Assembly: GCA_015060325.1 (NCBI GenBank)
Contig: SUYQ01000003.1
Location: forward strand, 20,528-84,527
From: Bacteroidales bacterium
Lineage (GTDB): Bacteria > Bacteroidota > Bacteroidia > Bacteroidales > UBA932
DNA length: 64,000 bases
Reading direction: 5' to 3'
Below, piece after piece: positions 48,705-57,071 of this stretch; position 1 is the stretch's first letter, and every line of letters begins with the position of its first letter. The position numbers and the translations under genes are program-made. The notes under the pieces were generated by a model. That model saw only the letters and a list, made by a program, of their open reading frames with translations, did not search any database and was not told the DNA's origin.

Positions 48705-48917
48705 GACCGCAAAATTACACAAAATCTTCGTTTGCCGTTGTATTTGCAGACAAATCCTGCAATCTGTGGCACAGAAAAAATTGAAAATCAGGCAATTGCC
48801 TAGCACTGCGTGCTCCCCTTTGGCGGCACGCAAATGTAGCTATACACCTAACACACAACGAATTACGCGCCACTCTCATTTATATAGTCATCCAACCCTT
48901 TGACCACCAACAACTTG

Positions 48918-48955
48918 ACTACCAACACGGTGGGTCATTTTGCCCCACCGTGTTG
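48918..48955. repeat. Hairpin CAACACGGTGGG-TCATTTTGC-CCCACCGTGTTG; 48918-48949 is a perfect inverted copy of 51191-51222
   Basis: Direct comparison of the two positions. Confidence 0.9.
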
Positions 48956-49058
48956 ATAGTTAATGCGCTGACCGATAGCGCTTTATGTGTCCATCAGATT
49001 GTAGGCATTTCGTTCATCTGGACATTTAGTGGGAGAGATTGGGAAATCAAGTTCAATA

Positions 49059-49336: not shown

Positions 49337-49750
49337 AGTTATATTGCGCAACCGATGAGACATTTAATATGAAAGAAGCTGACAGCAAGGGAGGTTGAAT
49401 CCTTGTTGTCAGCTTCATGTTATCAGTTCATGTTGCCTGATCATGTTACTTGATCATGTTGCCAGCTCCTGGTGCGAGCTTCATGTTTTTGCAGAACGGT
49501 ATGTTCTAGAAAGACTGGAATGTCGACCATTTCGTGTTGGCCTCGGCTGCTGTCTCAACGCCATCCGGAAGATTCACGAAGAAGTCAAATCCGGTCCAGG
49601 ACTCGATCTGGTCTACTGAGACTGCGTAGTTTGTGTAGGAATCCGAGTAGGTCTTATGCTCGAACCAGAAACCTATAGCACTTACACCCGGCAGTTCAAG
49701 CCAGGACTTGCCAGACACAGCCGGCAGCTGTGCAGCGACAGTCGTGAATG
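49337..49750 (-). repeat. Diverged direct duplicate of 51770-52067 plus 52626-52700 (nuclease 3' end, terminator and downstream flank)
   Basis: Shared CAGTTATATTGCGCAACCGATGAGACATT and AAGAAGCTGACAGCAAGG hairpin; homologous coding segments. Confidence 0.92.
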
Positions 49751-49766
49751 ACACCACCGGGCCCAT
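49506..49766 (-). pseudogene. Orphan endonuclease fragment with an in-frame internal deletion of the catalytic core
   Basis: SWLELPG joined directly to VSAIGFWFEHK; lacks the 186 codons (equivalent to 52068-52625) that include RGH; C-terminal 58 aa are 51/58 identical to the intact copy. Confidence 0.85.
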
Positions 49767-49803: not shown

Positions 49804-50736
49804 TTAAATTCTTGAGATCAATGCCTCAACCTGCTCAACTGTAAGCATAGTCAGCTTCGCCACTTGCTGCACATCCATTCCAGCTGCAAGCATATTAACA
49901 GCCACTTCTGCACGACCCTCAGCACGACCCTCAGCACGACCTTCTGCACGACCTTCTGCAAGTCCCTTCTCACGACCCTCTGCAAGTCCCTTCTCACGAC
50001 CTTCTTCCAGTCCGGTCTTAATCGCATAGGCAAATTGATTTCTCAAATCTCTTTCTGTTGTCATTTTGCTCAATATTAAAGTTCGTAAATCATCACTGCT
50101 CATTATCAGTTCACCTGTATCGAATATCTTATCAAAGACATCATGAGTCAAAGCTTTGGGACGTCCCTGCAACAGATGCATGTTCTTCAAGCAGAAATAC
50201 ATTCCTTCAAGTATATTGCCATCAAGCTCATCTTCGGTCTTCTTAAACTTTGGCAATTCAAGAAAAATGTATGTCAGTCTATTGGATAAAAGTCTATGGT
50301 GTTCTTGTTCCAACAACCTGTATACGGTTTTGACATTCGTCAGGCCCTCATTCTGTTTGAGGGTAAAATCCAAAATACTGATTACATAAATCGGACAAAA
50401 GTCATAACTGTCCTGTGCAGAATCAACTTGTTTCAGAACCTGATGCATAGAATAGTAGAGCATCCTCTCTGCATACCATTCCTGCTTTCGATTCTGAAGT
50501 TCAACAATAATTCTAGAACCATCATCTGTCTTACAGAACAAATCATAGATTGATGTTTTACGGTCACGAATATTCGGATGCATTTCCTTATCCATAAAAT
50601 CAACATCCACAATCTTCCTGTCATCAATCACCTGATTGAGAAACTCAATCATGACAGTCTTCGTAGACTCCTGTCCAAAAACCAGTTTGAAGGCATCATC
50701 GACCATCAAATCCGGATACTTTACATCTTCATGCAT
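49804..50736 (-). CDS. Rpn-family recombination-promoting nuclease / putative transposase (PDDEXK_2)
   Basis: DDAFKLVFG, IYDLFC.TDDG.RIIVELQN, ERMLYY, FLELPKF; C-terminal EGREKG/EGRAEG repeats; AVNML helix. Confidence 0.92.
   Translation of the reverse strand: MHEDVKYPDLMVDDAFKLVFGQESTKTVMIEFLNQVIDDRKIVDVDFMDKEMHPNIRDRKTSIYDLFCKTDDGSRIIVELQNRKQEWYAERMLYYSMHQVLKQVDSAQDSYDFCPIYVISILDFTLKQNEGLTNVKTVYRLLEQEHHRLLSNRLTYIFLELPKFKKTEDELDGNILEGMYFCLKNMHLLQGRPKALTHDVFDKIFDTGELIMSSDDLRTLILSKMTTERDLRNQFAYAIKTGLEEGREKGLAEGREKGLAEGRAEGRAEGRAEGRAEVAVNMLAAGMDVQQVAKLTMLTVEQVEALISRI
49906..50007 (-). repeat. 12/24-bp coding repeats in the Rpn C-terminus
   Basis: EGREKGLA x2, EGRA x4. Confidence 0.9.
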
Positions 50737-50947
50737 AAATTTTAATTTTAGATTAAACACTCCCAATACGGGCTAATAAAAATTTATGCATCCTCCCCTC
50801 AACGATTCCCCACAAATGTGCAAAAAAATCCGCACCAAGTCAACACACTGATACAGATTTTTCTTTTTATTTAACAAACTTTTTCTAAATCTTTAAATTT
50901 TTTCTTTTTTTTAATCTCCTCTGTGGTCTTCATTCCGGGTCACGTTG

Positions 50948-51074: not shown

Positions 51075-51148
51075 GTGTTCAGGGACTCTAGGATACGCAA
51101 ATACAACTATTGAACAAGACGACAGATAAGACAGCAGGCAAGATAATG

Positions 51149-51764
51149 GACATGTAAGTAGCTGATGATCAGCAAGATGAGTATTATGAGGGTGGGGCAA
51201 AATGACCCACCGTGTTGGTAGTTAGATAGTTGATAATCAGGAGGTTGCATGACCAAGAGAAGGCATTGAGTTCAACGATAATTTCGGTTGATTGGCTTTC
51301 CCGTCCATGAAAACGGGCAATTTCGTGGACGGGATACATCAAATTGATGGCCCCATCCATGAAAAGGACTGTTTTTGTGGATGGCGAAGTTCTGTTTAAA
51401 GTTCACGTCTATAGAAAGGGTCTATTTTGTGGAGAGAAAGACAGGACATTAGACATGTAGGTAGCTGATAGTCAGCAAGATGAGTACCGAGAGGATGGGG
51501 CAAAATGACCCACCGCATTGGTAGTTAGATAGTTGATAATCAGGAGGTTGCATGACCAAGAAAGGCATTGAGTTCAACGATAATTTCGGTTGATTGAACT
51601 GCGCCCCATCCATGAAAAGGGCTGTTTTTGTGGATGGCGCAGTTCTGTTTAAAGGTCACGCCTATAGAAAGGGTCTATTTTGTAGAGAGAAAGACAGGAT
51701 ATTAGACATGTAGGTAGCTGATAGTCAGCAAGATGAGTACCGAGAGGGTGGGGCAAAATGACCC
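51149..51764 (+). repeat. Non-coding tandem repeat: units of 303 and 253 bp plus a 60-bp partial, each with several hairpins
   Basis: GACATGTA(A/G)GTAGCTGAT starts at 51149, 51452 and 51705. Confidence 0.95.
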
Positions 51765-51806
51765 TCGGCCAGTTATATTGCGCAACCGATGAGACATTCA
51801 ATATGA

Positions 51807-51865
51807 AAGAAGCTGACAGCAAGGGAGGTTAACCTTGTAGGTTAAATCCTTGTTGTCAGCTTCTT
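51807..51865. terminator. Long hairpin downstream of the nuclease ORF (second copy near 49374-49416)
   Basis: AAGAAGCTGACAGCAAGG ... CCTTGTTGTCAGCTTCTT. Confidence 0.75.
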
Positions 51866-51887
51866 GTTTTTTGCAGAACGTTATGTT

Positions 51888-53006
51888 CTAAAAAGACTGG
51901 AATGTCGACCATTCAGCGTTGCTTTCAGCTTCTGCCTCAACAGTATCCGGAAGATTCACGAAGAAGTCAAATCCGGTCCAGGACTCGATCTTGTCTACAG
52001 AGACAGCATAGTTCGTGTAGGAGTCCGAGTAGGTCTTATGCTCGAACCAGAAACCTATAGCACTTGCGCCTGTTACCGTGCTGCCGGACTTATTGACCTT
52101 CAGGACGACCTTGTAGAAGTAGTTCGGAACCGGAACGCTCTTGGTGTCATCCTGGGCAGTCGTGTATGTTATCGACTTCGACTCCCCGACCTTATTGAAG
52201 GCCACACCGGTCACGATGTAGATCTCTTCGCTCTTCGCAATCGACTGGAGAGCGGCTTCAAGGTTCTGCCATACTCCTCCGTTGAAGTTGTTCTGGATCT
52301 GCGGAACAGAGTTGGTCACATAGAAGGTCTGCAGCTGCATCGTCTCGTTGCCGTTACGGGATGCATTCGGAATCATATGACCGCGCGAGTAGCTGTCATT
52401 GTAGCTGCTCGAACGCAGATCCACCTGATAGGACTGATCGATGCTCGGGCTGTAACTCCACTTGCTCGGGCGGCTCAGACTGCCCATATGGGACGAGTTC
52501 AGATGATATGCCGTCCACAACGAAGTGTAGGTCGACTTATCATAACAATGGGTGTAGTTGCGGTTGGCGTCAGTGGTCGAAGATCCATAATAGGTATTAA
52601 CGACGTAATCAGTTCCGCTCACCGCTCCCGGCAGCTCAAGCCAGGACTTTCCTGACACGGCAGGCACCTGTGCAGCGACAGTCTTGAATGACGTCACAGA
52701 GCCCGTGAAGGTCTGACCGCCAACCACAACATAAGACTGGACATAATATGTCGTGCCGGCAGACAGTCCCTCAACATCTGCACTGAATGAAGATGCCGTA
52801 CCGCTGTAATTGTCACATGTAATCGTTTTTGTCAAAGACGAGGAAGAAGTTCCATATCGGAATCCCACCTCCGTGGGCTCAGAAGACGCTTCCGTATACG
52901 AAGCAGACAGGCTGGCGCCTGTCTGCTCTATGTTCGTCACGGTAGTCGTCGTTACTGTTGCACCCACTGCGGGCTCATCACCCCCGACGCCTCCGCCGGA
53001 TGATGG
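51888..53006 (-). CDS. Fn3-like plus DNA/RNA non-specific endonuclease (His-Me finger) module; no signal peptide; in frame behind the upstream UGA
   Basis: SRGHMIPNA, FYVTNSVPQ..FNGGVWQNLE, YIVTG, VPNYFYKV. The frame is open from 53006 (PSSGGGVGGDEP linker); first possible own start is GTG at 52967. Confidence 0.88.
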   Translation of the reverse strand, partial: PSSGGGVGGDEPAVGATVTTTTVTNIEQTGASLSASYTEASSEPTEVGFRYGTSSSSLTKTITCDNYSGTASSFSADVEGLSAGTTYYVQSYVVVGGQTFTGSVTSFKTVAAQVPAVSGKSWLELPGAVSGTDYVVNTYYGSSTTDANRNYTHCYDKSTYTSLWTAYHLNSSHMGSLSRPSKWSYSPSIDQSYQVDLRSSSYNDSYSRGHMIPNASRNGNETMQLQTFYVTNSVPQIQNNFNGGVWQNLEAALQSIAKSEEIYIVTGVAFNKVGESKSITYTTAQDDTKSVPVPNYFYKVVLKVNKSGSTVTGASAIGFWFEHKTYSDSYTNYAVSVDKIESWTGFDFFVNLPDTVEAEAESNAEWSTFQSF

Positions 53007-55721
53007 TCACTGAAGTTTATAGATTGCAATATCTAACTGACCACTTGAATAGCAAGAGAAAATACGGCTTGAGCTATTATATCTCATCCAATTTCTTGTA
53101 TTGGTTCCATTTGCTTTAACAGTGGCAACACCTGCTGACGTAATTGATATAGTCCAAGAACTATTTGCAGACAATGTAGTTTCTGTTCTCAGATAGTTTT
53201 TAGAAGATGACGCAGCGTAAAGGTAACCAGAACCAGTATTAAAAGCATATGTTCCTGTAGTCTTACCAGTTTCAAGAGTCAATATCTGTACGTCACTGCC
53301 GAAAGTAATAGTATTACCACTCTTAGATACAGATGCTTGACCTCTGTTATTGCTATTCTGTGTAGTACTCAATGCATTATTTGAAGCACTTGCAACAATT
53401 ACCACCTGATCTCCAACAGCAAGGTTATTCACATCTGTAACTAAAGTCCAAGTTTTATCTGTCTCAACTACGTCAGATACGGTGATTTGATAAGTCGTTG
53501 TCTTGTCCTCATAGCTGACTGTTACGGTATATGTGTCAGCAACAGACATATTATAACCGTCAAAAGTAGCTGATGCAGTCACATCTTCTTTCGAGCCATC
53601 TGAATATGTTGCTGTAACAGTTGGCTTTACAAACTCCTCACCTACAGTGTATGTTGTCTTTTCACCTGATACAGCTATTGATTCCAAAGTTGCAGGTGCT
53701 TCTTCTCCCTCAACGGCTTTAATCAGATACAGATCCTGTGCCTGGGTACCAGCGTACATCGCAAAATAGTCATTACCTTGAGTACCATTAAGGCTTAAAT
53801 AACGATCTCCAGACACAAAGTTAAACGAGCCATCATCTTGTTTTGTAACAGTAAACTGTAAACCTGTCTCAGACATTACTGCTGAATTACCAGACGTCCA
53901 AGATACATACTCTTCTGATGCTACAGACTGAATTGTATATACTGATCCAGACTTAGAAACATTCCACAGTTTAGACGCAGCGACCTCTACATTATCTTCC
54001 GGCATATTTGCTCCTGCTGATACTGCTGTAAGTCTAACTGTTGAGGTACTTGTTTCTTCATTAGTCAAATAATAGTATAGAGACTCTGAGTTTCTATATG
54101 CCACAATCGCATACTGTCCAGAGTAGTCAGAATCATCAACCACCGTCGCCGAAACAGTTATATTGTAGGATGTAGTCACAGTCACTTCACCCTCAGTATA
54201 GGAAACTGTAACTTCCTTGGTTCCTTCCGACGCCAAATCATTGCCACTAAATGTAGCACCTGTTACTGTTTCAGTGCTTGCATCATCATAAGTAGCCTTA
54301 ACTGTCGGTTCAACAAACTCATCACCTACGGTATATTCGATCTGCGGATTCTCCACAGCAATCGACACCAAAGTTTTAGGTTCTGGCTCTGGAGTCTCGC
54401 CACCCTCGTTTTCGGTATAGTAAACAACAACAGAAGTAAATCCGCATGTACCTCCAATAGTGGCAGTCATCGGCTGAGTTCCGTTCGTTGGAGTAACAGT
54501 TACAGTAGTAGTATTCACTTCAGCTGAAGCATTTGTCCAAGAACTACCCGAAAGAGCAGTTGCATAGTTTGCTGATGTTGCAGTAAAGACAACAGATGTA
54601 ATCTTGTATCCAGTCTTAGAAGCAATGGTCAAGACACTATTTTTGTAGAACCTTGTACTAGTCCTGCTGTCGCTATTACCACCATAATAATTGTTTGTTG
54701 GAGTTGATGCACCACCCTTTTCACAATACATCTCAGCGAAATCACTTGTCCAAGCGATCTTAGTATCAGACACTTCCGATGTCTCATTTATTGACAAATT
54801 CCATGTTACATTTTCTGGTTCTGGTTCTACTACATCAGCCGAAGAAATTGTATATGGAGTAGTGTTATACTTTCCTGCCTCGAATGATATTCCGTTCAAT
54901 GTAACAGTCTTTGTGTAAGTCTTGCCCTCTGCGTCGGTAACCTTGAATGTCACATCTCCCGAGTAATTTGAGAGAGGAGCCATTACAAAGTAAACTGGAA
55001 GAGATTCGCCAGCTGCAACTGTACCATTTGTTACATTTACAGTGATAGCTGATGACTCATTTTGCTTTATAGATATAGATGGTGTTTCGAAAGACTCCAC
55101 ATTAAACACACCCGCGATATCAGCACCTTCAGCTGTCATCTCAAACTTTGCAACCTCAATTTCAGCACCTGTATTATTCTTTACATCTACCTGCATCATT
55201 GTATAGATGTGCGACATCGTTACCTGAGCAGCCTCGGTCATAGGAGTAGTGGCAGTAAAGGTACCTACGAGTGCATCATTTTCCTTGATATGAGCAGTAG
55301 GATTTGCGCAATCCTGTGACTGAGTTGCCTCAAGTTTATGCGTTGTTGATGCTCCACGATGATATGACTTCTGGTTAGCTCTAGCATACATAGCATTAAA
55401 TGTATACTCGCCATCAGATATTGTGGATCCTGTCGTAAACTTTCCATCATTGTATGCATACTCTGCTATTGTAGCAGCCTCTGTATCATTTGCATACGGT
55501 GCCCCCCAAGTACCGTCTGTCGTAACTAGATAGAGTACATCTCCTTCCTCCCACTCAACTGAAAGGCCATCTAGAGTTGTCTTTGTCTGTGCAATCTCTG
55601 CTACAAGTTCAAATGAAGAACCTTCTGCTTTGGCATTTGGGTCTTCGATTTCATTTTTCTGGCATCCTGCAAAATTAACCATAGCAGCAGCCATACCTAA
55701 CAAAAGAACTATTTTTTTCAT
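53007..55721 (-). CDS. Fimbrillin-like (type V pilin, Mfa-like) lipoprotein with two Big_3-type Ig domains and beta-rich C-terminal modules
   Basis: Lipobox FAGC; QTKTTL..VEWEEGDV pilin N-terminus; two repeats of SIAV..YTVG.EF..PTV.ATY.D..VTVSY; AT-rich sequence. Confidence 0.78.
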   Translation of the reverse strand: MKKIVLLLGMAAAMVNFAGCQKNEIEDPNAKAEGSSFELVAEIAQTKTTLDGLSVEWEEGDVLYLVTTDGTWGAPYANDTEAATIAEYAYNDGKFTTGSTISDGEYTFNAMYARANQKSYHRGASTTHKLEATQSQDCANPTAHIKENDALVGTFTATTPMTEAAQVTMSHIYTMMQVDVKNNTGAEIEVAKFEMTAEGADIAGVFNVESFETPSISIKQNESSAITVNVTNGTVAAGESLPVYFVMAPLSNYSGDVTFKVTDAEGKTYTKTVTLNGISFEAGKYNTTPYTISSADVVEPEPENVTWNLSINETSEVSDTKIAWTSDFAEMYCEKGGASTPTNNYYGGNSDSRTSTRFYKNSVLTIASKTGYKITSVVFTATSANYATALSGSSWTNASAEVNTTTVTVTPTNGTQPMTATIGGTCGFTSVVVYYTENEGGETPEPEPKTLVSIAVENPQIEYTVGDEFVEPTVKATYDDASTETVTGATFSGNDLASEGTKEVTVSYTEGEVTVTTSYNITVSATVVDDSDYSGQYAIVAYRNSESLYYYLTNEETSTSTVRLTAVSAGANMPEDNVEVAASKLWNVSKSGSVYTIQSVASEEYVSWTSGNSAVMSETGLQFTVTKQDDGSFNFVSGDRYLSLNGTQGNDYFAMYAGTQAQDLYLIKAVEGEEAPATLESIAVSGEKTTYTVGEEFVKPTVTATYSDGSKEDVTASATFDGYNMSVADTYTVTVSYEDKTTTYQITVSDVVETDKTWTLVTDVNNLAVGDQVVIVASASNNALSTTQNSNNRGQASVSKSGNTITFGSDVQILTLETGKTTGTYAFNTGSGYLYAASSSKNYLRTETTLSANSSWTISITSAGVATVKANGTNTRNWMRYNSSSRIFSCYSSGQLDIAIYKLQ

Positions 55722-56084: not shown

Positions 56085-57071
56085 TTATTCTGCAAGATAT
56101 TTTTTAAACGAAATCCAGTCGGACGCAGTCTCAGAAACCGTCTCTATCGGGTCAGGCAGACCGGCAAAAAGATCGAGTCCAGTGAGCTTTTCAATATCGT
56201 CGACGGTGACCGTGAATTCAGAATACGAATGTCCCTTGAGGTCTTCGTGTGGGAGAAGAAATCCTATGGTCCTGGCCTCAACCACCCCATCACTTCCCCG
56301 CTCAACCTTAAGCAGAGCCTTCCAATAGCTTTCGGGCACAGGAAGAGTCTTGGAGTCGTTCTTATTGACTATGGTCCTGACGGCACTGAGCTCATCACCC
56401 TGAGAGAAAATGGCTCCCGTCACGACATAGAGCGTATCTTCCGGAGGCACTGCTGAGCGCACCGCTTCCTCCAGTTTAGCCCATATCCCTCCGTTGAATC
56501 CATGCTGGATCTGAGGAGTCATGTTTGTCGAAAAATAGGTCTGAGCCTGCATTTCAGGGACTGCACTGCGGTCTGCATTCGGGATCTGGTGGCCTCGGGC
56601 ATAGAAGTTCTTCGGGTAGTTTGCAGTCGGGACAGATACGCCATAGCCGCTGCGTACATTGGTCTGGATGACCCTGGAAAGCTGCGGATCATACCCCCAG
56701 GTCTCCTCACGTCCCTTGGATGTGTGCGCGCTGCAGAGAGGATATGCCACCCAATGGGCCGCATACAGGTCCTGGTCGTAACAGAGGGTGTAGTTGCGCT
56801 GGAGCGTTCCATTCATATGCGCTCTATGGGTCACGATATGACATCCCTCCATATCCCCCTTTCCCTGAGGCAGTTCCAGCCAGTCAGGAGTTCCGGGGCC
56901 AGCAGATGACGCCATAGCCTTGCGAGCCTTTCCGGCTCCGTCGTCAGACGGACCGTTCCCGGCATCCTGGGCAGAAGCCGATTGTGACTTGCTGCCAAAT
57001 ACGACAAAAAGCAGCAACACCAGGCTCAGGCCTAGTATCACTGCTATAGTTATTCTGGTACTTTTCTTCAT
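56085..57071 (-). CDS. Membrane-anchored DNA/RNA non-specific endonuclease
   Basis: N-terminal TM helix; NYTLCYD..AAHWVAY, YARGHQIPNAD, YFSTNMTPQ..FNGGIWAKLE. Confidence 0.93.
   Translation of the reverse strand: MKKSTRITIAVILGLSLVLLLFVVFGSKSQSASAQDAGNGPSDDGAGKARKAMASSAGPGTPDWLELPQGKGDMEGCHIVTHRAHMNGTLQRNYTLCYDQDLYAAHWVAYPLCSAHTSKGREETWGYDPQLSRVIQTNVRSGYGVSVPTANYPKNFYARGHQIPNADRSAVPEMQAQTYFSTNMTPQIQHGFNGGIWAKLEEAVRSAVPPEDTLYVVTGAIFSQGDELSAVRTIVNKNDSKTLPVPESYWKALLKVERGSDGVVEARTIGFLLPHEDLKGHSYSEFTVTVDDIEKLTGLDLFAGLPDPIETVSETASDWISFKKYLAE

Follow-up and report, generated by a model that had tools for sequence, protein, structure and literature searches.

A Conserved UGA Codon and Hairpin between a Modular Lipoprotein and a Nuclease in Gut Bacteroidales: A Candidate for Programmed Readthrough

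Introduction

Does the UGA codon that separates a lipoprotein gene from a nuclease coding sequence in an uncultured gut Bacteroidales always end translation, or is it sometimes read through? The question is raised by a 64,000-nucleotide stretch of a Bacteroidales bacterium (UBA932; assembly GCA_015060325.1, contig SUYQ01000003.1, positions 20,528-84,527), hereafter called the window, to which all coordinates refer. On its minus strand, an open reading frame (ORF A, 55721-53010) encodes a lipoprotein of 904 residues, which starts with MKKIVLLLGMAAAMVNFAGC and ends with ...DIAIYKLQ. It is closed by a UGA with C as the following (+4) base (53009-53007), the candidate readthrough codon. Beyond this codon the same frame stays open: it passes PSSGGGVGGDEPAV and a GTG at 52967 and then has 358 more codons before a stop at 51888. 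An earlier examination of the letters of this DNA (the sequence-only reading) had claimed that the two parts form a single frame interrupted by one UGA-C, whose readthrough would give a product of 1277 residues, and translation of the frame bears this out.

Programmed readthrough is well documented in viruses and eukaryotes, and almost undocumented for bacterial chromosomal genes. Full-text literature searches returned no prior description of readthrough in Bacteroidales or Cryptobacteroides, nor of this gene family. The explanation favoured here, with a probability of roughly 65%, is that the UGA is a programmed readthrough site, so that a variable lectin-like lipoprotein would also be made in a minor isoform that carries the nuclease. 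The features by which readthrough sites are recognized occur together at this locus: a single in-frame stop followed by an open frame without a start of its own, conservation of the stop with selection downstream of it, a leaky stop codon in a leaky context, and a conserved 3' structure at a fixed distance, which may act as a stimulator.

Integrity of the Stop Codon

At least 23 contigs, taken from independent ENA and JGI metagenome assemblies, encode the identical 904-residue protein with the same stop at its end. The gene order on these contigs is the same, namely sigma-54, RadC, a paralogous nuclease, ORF A, and the nuclease. No letter other than those of TGA was found at 53007-53009 in the contigs of four faecal or gut metagenomes. 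In the two deepest sequencing runs (X1 and X2), the k-mer depth at 52973-53014 is about 2150-2500, versus about 100-135 in the flanks, a difference of approximately 20-fold. Several contigs diverge exactly at 53009 in all four metagenomes, with at least six of them in X1 and X2. Many genes or strains within one community thus share the stop, hairpin, and linker. The element they form occurs in many more contexts in that community than the ORF A gene alone.

The TGA could have arisen by an error of assembly or sequencing, by a chimeric join at a repeat, or by a recent nonsense mutation in a dying gene. The junction is indeed a short repeat on many contigs, at which contigs assembled with k = 31 break, and a few loci carry extra lesions (a second TGA in L026, and TAG codons within the WLELP motif of L045 and L087). 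Nevertheless, the same join and the same neighbours recur on the 23 or more contigs, which were produced by different projects and assemblers, and the common stretch of about 40 nucleotides, far below the assembly k of 141, is too short to generate chimeras. Error and chimerism were rejected on these grounds. The stop is also found at 65 distinct junctions, with purifying selection downstream. A recent pseudogene was rejected because of this conservation of the stop and the ratio of non-synonymous to synonymous substitution rates (dN/dS): the lesion is not private to one lineage, and selection is not relaxed. Artefact or decay is, therefore, an explanation of negligible probability. A genome-wide reassignment of UGA was also considered and rejected, since eight ordinary genes of the window end with TGA, and an in-frame TGA interrupts no other real gene pair there.

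No intrinsic terminator was found between the two ORFs on the coding strand. Metatranscriptome contigs of related loci cross the junction, while ORF A of the present strain had no coverage in them.

Conservation of the Junction and Selection on the Extension

Homologues of the extension are mostly 'proteins' of 280-390 residues without a signal peptide, beginning in the linker or in the domain that follows it. A comparison of homologues for a stop or a sense codon at this junction, which the sequence-only reading had proposed, was run on homologue DNA together with 35 GTDB species-representative loci and 55 metagenome loci, the junctions being found by walking upstream in the nuclease frame. 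It gives 65 distinct junctions, in which a stop lies directly before a glycine-rich linker (xSSGGGvGGDEP and variants), and a sense codon (GGA) in three loci. The stop is TGA in 62 junctions, TAG in two, and TAA in one, the TAA locus having a second stop and possibly decaying. Upstream, in the same frame, lie lipoprotein ORFs of several hundred residues (maximum 1032), nearly all of which, when complete on their contig, begin with a lipobox signal peptide. This recurrence is far beyond chance. The hosts are mostly Candidatus Cryptobacteroides or unclassified Bacteroidales/Rikenellaceae from the ruminant, horse, chicken, and human gut; a few short contigs binned as Firmicutes probably result from mis-binning.

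The extension comprises three parts. The glycine-rich interdomain linker PSSGGGVGGDEPAV (52965-53006, minus strand) lies directly 3' of the stop, has no start codon, and is disordered in the AlphaFold2 (AF2) model, with a predicted local distance difference test (pLDDT) score of about 39. It is followed by an Fn3 or immunoglobulin-like (Ig-like) beta-sandwich (extension residues 17-108; 52683-52958, minus strand), modelled with seven strands at a pLDDT of 85-92. A partial NCBIfam match relates this region to the N-terminal beta-sandwich region of BT0360, and in relatives it matches PhoD_N or Pur_ac_phosph_N. The last part is a DNA/RNA non-specific endonuclease (Endonuclease_NS, PF01223, E 1e-42; 51945-52604, minus strand), which precedes the final stop at 51890-51888. 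Its nearest solved relatives are Anabaena NucA, EXOG, EndoG, and the Serratia nuclease. In the AF2 model of the extension, built from a 10-sequence alignment, the nuclease is poorly modelled (mean pLDDT 56) and only the Fn3-like part is confident.

Several observations indicate that this extension is retained as coding sequence. The catalytic motifs SRGHMIPN and TNSVPQ are intact, and their columns are invariant in relatives. Pairwise dN/dS has a median of 0.22 in the nuclease and of 0.33 in the Fn3-like domain, dS being often saturated. The possibility raised earlier that the nuclease is silent or decaying is contradicted by the dN/dS value of about 0.2 and by the intact motifs. In approximately 22 loci, which lack the Fn3 domain, the stretch from the stop to W(L/P)ELP, where the nuclease domain begins, has no ATG, GTG, or TTG codon. 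Their linkers range from 19 to 48 codons, a spread which implies many insertions and deletions, but stop and nuclease share one frame in all of them. Taken as a whole, the comparison points to purifying selection on the extension as coding sequence, beginning with the codon next to the stop.

A few loci depart from this pattern. In L026, the second in-frame TGA lies in the linker (about 2768-2800) and the primary stop is TAA. The TAG codons of L045 and L087 replace the tryptophan of WLELP, and the linker of L098 is frameshifted. These lesions look like occasional decay of the extension.

The most substantial alternative to readthrough is that of two cistrons, in which the TGA is a plain terminator, the nuclease is made by reinitiation or from a non-canonical start, or is hardly expressed, and the junction DNA is kept as a recombination arm. 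Gene callers do place GTG or ATG starts in some loci, and L009 has a TAG-ATG arrangement. In the window as well, the downstream module has no signal peptide and its only start candidates are GTG codons, as had been claimed. The two-cistron explanation would also account for a cassette exchange boundary lying exactly at the TGA, for the 20-fold excess of junction k-mers in one community, and for hairpins in some stop-less linkers. It does not fit the 22 or so loci without any usable start before the nuclease domain, nor the open frame itself, in which the Fn3 domain ahead of any usable start is selected (dN/dS 0.33) and linker insertions and deletions always keep the frame. The export signal expected of secreted Endonuclease_NS members follows the stop in none of the loci, whereas in the stop-less relatives an exported lipoprotein ends with the nuclease domain. 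A non-specific nuclease left in the cytoplasm would be toxic, and no conserved inhibitor gene adjoins it. Two cistrons are, on balance, unlikely.

The identity of the stop also bears on this alternative. The 44 likely genes of the window end with TAA (19), TAG (16), or TGA (9, the junction stop included), and in the flanking genes of related loci TGA is the rarest stop (11/111). As TAA and TAG dominate in these genomes, a neutral terminator would drift to one of them. Since a change from TGA to TAA is neutral for a plain terminator and nearby synonymous sites are saturated, the retention of TGA argues for selection on the codon, a caveat being the relatedness of the junctions and their exchange by recombination.

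Of the three stop codons, UGA leaks most, and a C at position +4 favours leakiness (PMC7026636). At the junctions, the +4 base is C in 34 cases (52%), A in 18, T in seven (11%), and G in six. The context of the junction stop, TGA-C, is atypical for the window. The ordinary TGA stops there are all TGA-T (8/8), which suggests, from a small sample, that TGAT is a strong tetranucleotide termination signal in this genome. The ordinary TGA stops of related loci are less clean in this respect, with A in four, T in three, C in three, and G in one.

The Hairpin Downstream of the Stop

The stop is followed by a 7-nucleotide spacer (CCAUCAU, 53000-53006, minus strand), constant in length and variable in sequence across loci, and then by a conserved GC hairpin of six base pairs, CCGGCG-GAGG-CGUCGG (52984-52999, minus strand), which is supported by covariation, folding, and a covariance model. 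Counting the U of UGA as 1, nucleotides 11-16 pair with 21-26 in the consensus (CCGGCG-GAGG-CGYCGG). In the window, the hairpin is extended by pairing between CAUCAU (53005-53000) and GUGAUG (52981-52976), an extension found only in a subset of loci. A hairpin had already been predicted at 52976-53005 (CAUCAUCC/GGGUGAUG); the region holds, but the predicted register is off the conserved core, and its outer part is limited to the same subset.

Paired cells amount to 94% in the hairpin register, versus 35-70% when the 3' arm is slid. Several variants keep the helix and change the peptide: CCGUCG/CGACGG, CCGCCG/CGGCGG, CUGCCG/CGGCGG, CCGGAG/UUCCGG, CCGGUG/CAUCGG, and CCGGUG-7 nt-CACCGG. None of 500 column shuffles matches the observed covariation score. 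The loops (GAGG, GCGG, GGGG, GUGA, ACCC, AGGGAAA) usually have G first. Compared with synonymous resamplings of the 11 codons that follow the stop, the native sequence has the more stable fold in 42/42 junctions tested, representing 33 different peptides (mean z -2.2, p<0.05 in 74%). A covariance model of the stop, spacer, and hairpin gives one match per stop-bearing locus, and none elsewhere in 505 kb or in the stop-less loci. Folding of the whole region gives a z-score of -0.26, which is not significant, so that the support concerns the local hairpin only. The third-position entropy of the junction glycine codons is 1.39 bits, versus 1.72 bits in the nuclease, which is weak evidence when taken alone. 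The frequent G.U pairs (codon GUC) point to a constraint on RNA rather than on duplex DNA; together with the compensatory changes, this RNA-level constraint is a further argument against two cistrons.

A UGA with a close conserved hairpin inside the coding sequence, within about 10 nucleotides, is also the anatomy of selenoprotein genes. The UGA could, accordingly, encode selenocysteine, the hairpin being a bacterial selenocysteine insertion sequence (SECIS) bound by SelB, to which its usually G-first loop gives it a superficial likeness. Against this, the codon opens a low-complexity Gly/Ser interdomain linker, with no redox active site, and stop-less relatives have glycine (GGA) or nothing at this position, never cysteine. 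Three loci have UAG or UAA, the loop varies in sequence and lies only about 13 nucleotides past the UGA, and neither the window nor 45 related loci yielded a gene for tRNA-Sec. An Rfam search of the junction (E up to 10) returned neither a SECIS nor any other known RNA family; its one hit was an unrelated viral element on the other strand. Selenocysteine insertion is, thus, very unlikely.

The anatomy described so far would be the same if the suppression were conditional, the UGA being read efficiently only in the presence of a UGA-reading host tRNA or of a suppressor tRNA from a recoded phage, so that the nuclease isoform would depend on conditions. Precedents exist: crAss-like phages of gut Bacteroidales have an experimentally confirmed reassignment of UAG to glutamine (PMC9523058), and various bacteria possess UGA-reading variants of tRNA-Trp whose anticodon stem has 4 bp (PMC13092985). 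Here, a suppressor-like tRNA was found neither in the window nor in the 45 loci, where only tRNA-His, Lys, Ile, Ala, and Arg occur, and the hairpin motif is absent from IMG/VR viral contigs. Moreover, the product would be exported, so that an intracellular anti-phage role is not obvious. Conditional suppression is improbable.

Module Exchange and Stop-Less Relatives

The composition of the window changes abruptly at the stop, with 21/60 and 24/60 GC in the two halves of 53041-53160 versus 36/60 and 33/60 in those of 52861-52980; these counts, already made from the letters alone, are exact. ORF A has a GC content of 0.41, and the GC content at third codon positions, computed per whole ORF, is 0.29 upstream and 0.62 downstream, the neighbouring genes ranging from 0.57 to 0.74. 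A step exists at all junctions, with a mean of 0.39 in the 300 nucleotides before the stop versus 0.55 in the 300 after it. It is, therefore, a trait of the family and not a recent accident.

The step coincides with a boundary of exchange. Between L062 and L064, the N-termini are 100% identical and the nucleases 96%, while the last 120 residues before the stop cannot be aligned. In DNA, the mosaic pair is 97% identical from 3 nucleotides before the TGA through 4.6 kb downstream and 92-94% identical in the 5' part of the ORF, with about 1 kb ahead of the stop being devoid of similarity. Converse mosaics also exist, in which one upstream module is combined with nucleases of only 50% identity and the number of Fn3 domains is zero, one, or two. 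This mosaicism indicates that the upstream binding modules behave as exchangeable cassettes between a conserved 5' part and the stop-hairpin-linker element. A near-identical signal peptide, MKMNMKKIISWGMMLAAAFTLTNCAKE, is seen in L013, L016, L017, L005, L047, and L048, in ORFs of 642-925 residues whose C-terminal modules are unrelated. The 5' end would thus be the left-hand conserved arm of the variable region.

The sequence-only reading had set two alternatives side by side: programmed readthrough, or the replacement of the original N-terminus by an AT-rich foreign pilin cassette, which left the nuclease dependent on readthrough or silent. Both are partly supported, as properties of the gene family. 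Readthrough is favoured by the conserved UGA, the selected frame, and the hairpin in dozens of species, at a strength short of proof. Module swapping stands as a process at the level of the family, given the mosaic loci, but not as a single event that stranded the nuclease.

Uninterrupted lipoprotein-nuclease fusions (P0065, P0069, P0081, P0104, and L040-42) resemble the locus in their lipobox, fimbrillin-like N-terminus, variable modules (beta-trefoil, BACON-like, and others), acidic or glycine-rich linker, and Endonuclease_NS domain. They differ in having neither the stop nor the conserved hairpin. In P0065 (L101), a beta-trefoil homologous to that of ORF A is fused directly to the nuclease (...SCYSSGQKDISIYRMPGGSSGEEEPP...), without stop, such hairpin, or GC step. 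In the next gene after P0065, an in-frame TGA separates a 735-residue ORF from a nuclease, and the hairpin, located 17 nucleotides past the stop, is another one (GGGAGGGG-AAAC-CCCUCCC). Stop-less and stop-bearing forms are, thus, in tandem at 2028-7160 of L101 (GCA_965330685.1) and coexist in one genome. The three loci L040-42 have GGA (glycine) exactly at the position of the TGA, followed by the same spacer; five of the six hairpin pairs are left in one of them, and the hairpin is degraded in the other two. P0065 and L040-42 imply that the fusion architecture is viable and used, and that stop and sense codons interconvert by one base change.

Proposed Mechanism and Comparison with Known Systems

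In the readthrough model, most ribosomes would stop at the UGA (53009-53007) and release a 904-residue surface lipoprotein made of fimbrillin-like, Ig-like, and beta-trefoil lectin-like modules. A minority would insert an amino acid at the UGA, tRNA-Trp or another near-cognate tRNA being the most likely decoder, and continue through the linker and the Fn3-like domain into the NucA/EndoG-type nuclease. When the UGA is in the A site, the hairpin 7 nucleotides further on would sit at the mRNA entrance and could raise readthrough, as viral 3' structures do. As the nuclease would be exported and displayed only by means of the lipoprotein signal peptide, the long form would be a nuclease-carrying isoform. 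The stop, spacer, hairpin, and linker would, at the same time, constitute the fixed right-hand border next to which binding modules are exchanged between strains by recombination. The chances are put at about even that the UGA, the 7-nucleotide spacer, and the GC hairpin form a dedicated signal, which both sets the ratio of nuclease-free to nuclease-bearing isoforms and serves as the junction for module swapping.

The proposed mechanism would resemble the programmed readthrough with a 3' structure of viruses or eukaryotes. In viruses it is known from the MuLV (murine leukaemia virus) gag-pol pseudoknot and from the stem-loops of alphaviruses, tobraviruses, and furoviruses. There, too, the stop is leaky, mostly UGA, and often followed by C (PMC3159437, PMC7026636). 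The downstream domain has no start, the pairing lies 7-9 nucleotides past the stop and shows compensatory changes, and stop and sense codons alternate among relatives. The viral structures start 7-9 nucleotides, and once 12 nucleotides, after the stop (PMC3159437). The present case differs in being a cellular bacterial gene, translated by the 70S ribosome with RF2, and in having a 6-bp hairpin (about 12 bp when extended) instead of a structure of 100-200 nucleotides or a pseudoknot. It also differs in that the signal coincides with a recombination boundary. Within bacteria, the A1 protein of coliphage Q-beta (coat-protein UGA) and a Bacillus subtilis enzyme are likewise minor isoforms extended at the C-terminus by low-rate UGA readthrough, as is proposed here. 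To our knowledge, these are cases of context-dependent leakiness for which no conserved stimulatory hairpin has been described. In the present family, a whole enzymatic domain would be added to a surface lipoprotein, and the signal is shared by the chromosomal genes of a genus-level clade.

Various points weigh against programmed readthrough. The only bacterial cases in the recoding review are that Bacillus subtilis enzyme and coliphage Q-beta (PMC7026636). The +4 base varies among junctions, and the stop of three loci is UAG or UAA, codons less prone to readthrough. We know of no established precedent for hairpin-stimulated readthrough in bacterial cellular genes. The 65 junctions are related and have been exchanged by recombination, so that their counts are not counts of independent events, and use as a homology arm in recombination could explain part of the nucleotide conservation seen there. 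The helix has only six base pairs and lies in DNA rich in glycine codons, where xCC-GGx (Gly/Ser/Pro) codons easily yield CCGG palindromes. The stop-less linkers of L089 and L091 also hold hairpins, and the linker class SGGSGGGGS folds unlike the consensus. The check for variants at the stop was made on assembled contigs, from which minor sense-codon variants could escape. Finally, the support as a whole is comparative.

Modular Architecture of the Lipoprotein

ORF A (minus strand) begins with a signal peptide and the lipobox MKKIVLLLGMAAAMVNFAG|C (...FAG|C20; 55721-55662). A fimbrillin-like Mfa_like_1 domain follows at residues 56-295 (54837-55556; PF13149, E 2e-12, 48 bits where the cutoff is 27); the T-K47-T motif ahead of it can be aligned by eye with the T-[RK]-T of relatives. 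After a domain without assignment come two mutually similar Ig-like segments of the Big_3 type (Big_3 PF07523 at residues 687-748, E 2e-5), which flank a tentative first beta-trefoil-like region (about residues 520-660; 53742-54164) matching RicinB_lectin_2 at E 2e-4, below the Pfam cutoff.

The C-terminal module, of 157 residues (53010-53480), occupies the variable cassette position directly upstream of the stop. It was assigned to the beta-trefoil (lectin-like) fold from its AF2 model, which has a pLDDT of 95.9, and from Foldseek comparison with the PDB, which retrieves the botulinum HA33, fascin, ThreeFoil, and the BT0265 GH43 entry (template modelling score about 0.6, E 2e-4). No Pfam family was found for this module, which had been absent from the earlier list of domains, and NCBIfam and PDB sequence searches of ORF A gave nothing useful.

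The label 'pilin-like' that had been attached to ORF A holds at the level of fold and family, on account of the Mfa_like_1 match and the lipobox. The nuclease-tipped pilin that had been suggested would require cleavage and polymerisation in addition to these two features. Like type V (FimA/Mfa) pilins, ORF A would be a lipoprotein precursor with an N-terminal Mfa_like_1 domain and a conserved basic residue (K47, in T-K-T) at the position of pilin cleavage, a likeness read from the sequence. It differs from them in its much greater length of 904 residues and its lectin-like modules. No anchor, tip, or other pilin genes were seen adjoining the gene, and no pilus operon partners in the window.

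Neighbouring Features of the Window

Directly upstream of the lipoprotein gene, on the same strand, lies a paralogous Endonuclease_NS gene (56085-57071), encoding 328 residues with their own N-terminal signal or membrane anchor. This paralogue is syntenic in related genomes (L001-L008). With its own signal, it makes the locus one that encodes a conventionally secreted nuclease next to a stop-dependent one.

On the other side, an 86-residue ORF (49506-49766, minus strand) is the internally deleted relic of a second Fn3-nuclease copy, as seen from the repeats 49486-49688, similar to 51868-52070, and 49687-49764, similar to 52627-52704. It joins the end of the Fn3 domain and WLELPG to the last 60 or so residues of the nuclease, with 81-85% amino acid identity to the live copy, which suggests an earlier duplication or allele replacement at the locus. 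Between this relic and the live nuclease lies a low-GC gene (49804-50766, minus strand) for a 'transposase' of the PD-(D/E)XK nuclease family (PF12784, E 2e-47), with a C-terminal EGR/AEGR repeat; this gene may have some link to the rearrangement. Three tandem units of about 250-300 nucleotides (51136-51830), found shortly past the nuclease stop, are 60-95% identical, each with a GGTGGG...CCCACC palindrome. A related piece of 62 nucleotides is found at 48901-48962.

Conclusions

If correct, this would be the first programmed readthrough stimulated by a structured RNA in cellular bacterial genes, besides selenocysteine insertion. It would add a recoding mechanism to bacterial gene expression, one which controls whether a surface protein bears a nuclease. 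The element is compact, about 30 nucleotides, and can be tested directly with reporters. The analysis also flags a class of 'split' genes, which annotation pipelines call as a 'hypothetical protein' and an 'endonuclease' without signal peptide and with a doubtful start.

For the organisms themselves, the locus points to a recombining family of modular adhesin/lectin-nucleases in abundant uncultured Bacteroidales of the gut and rumen. Such a family may be relevant to extracellular DNA degradation, to interactions with biofilms and neutrophil extracellular traps (NETs), and to strain-level variation of the cell surface.

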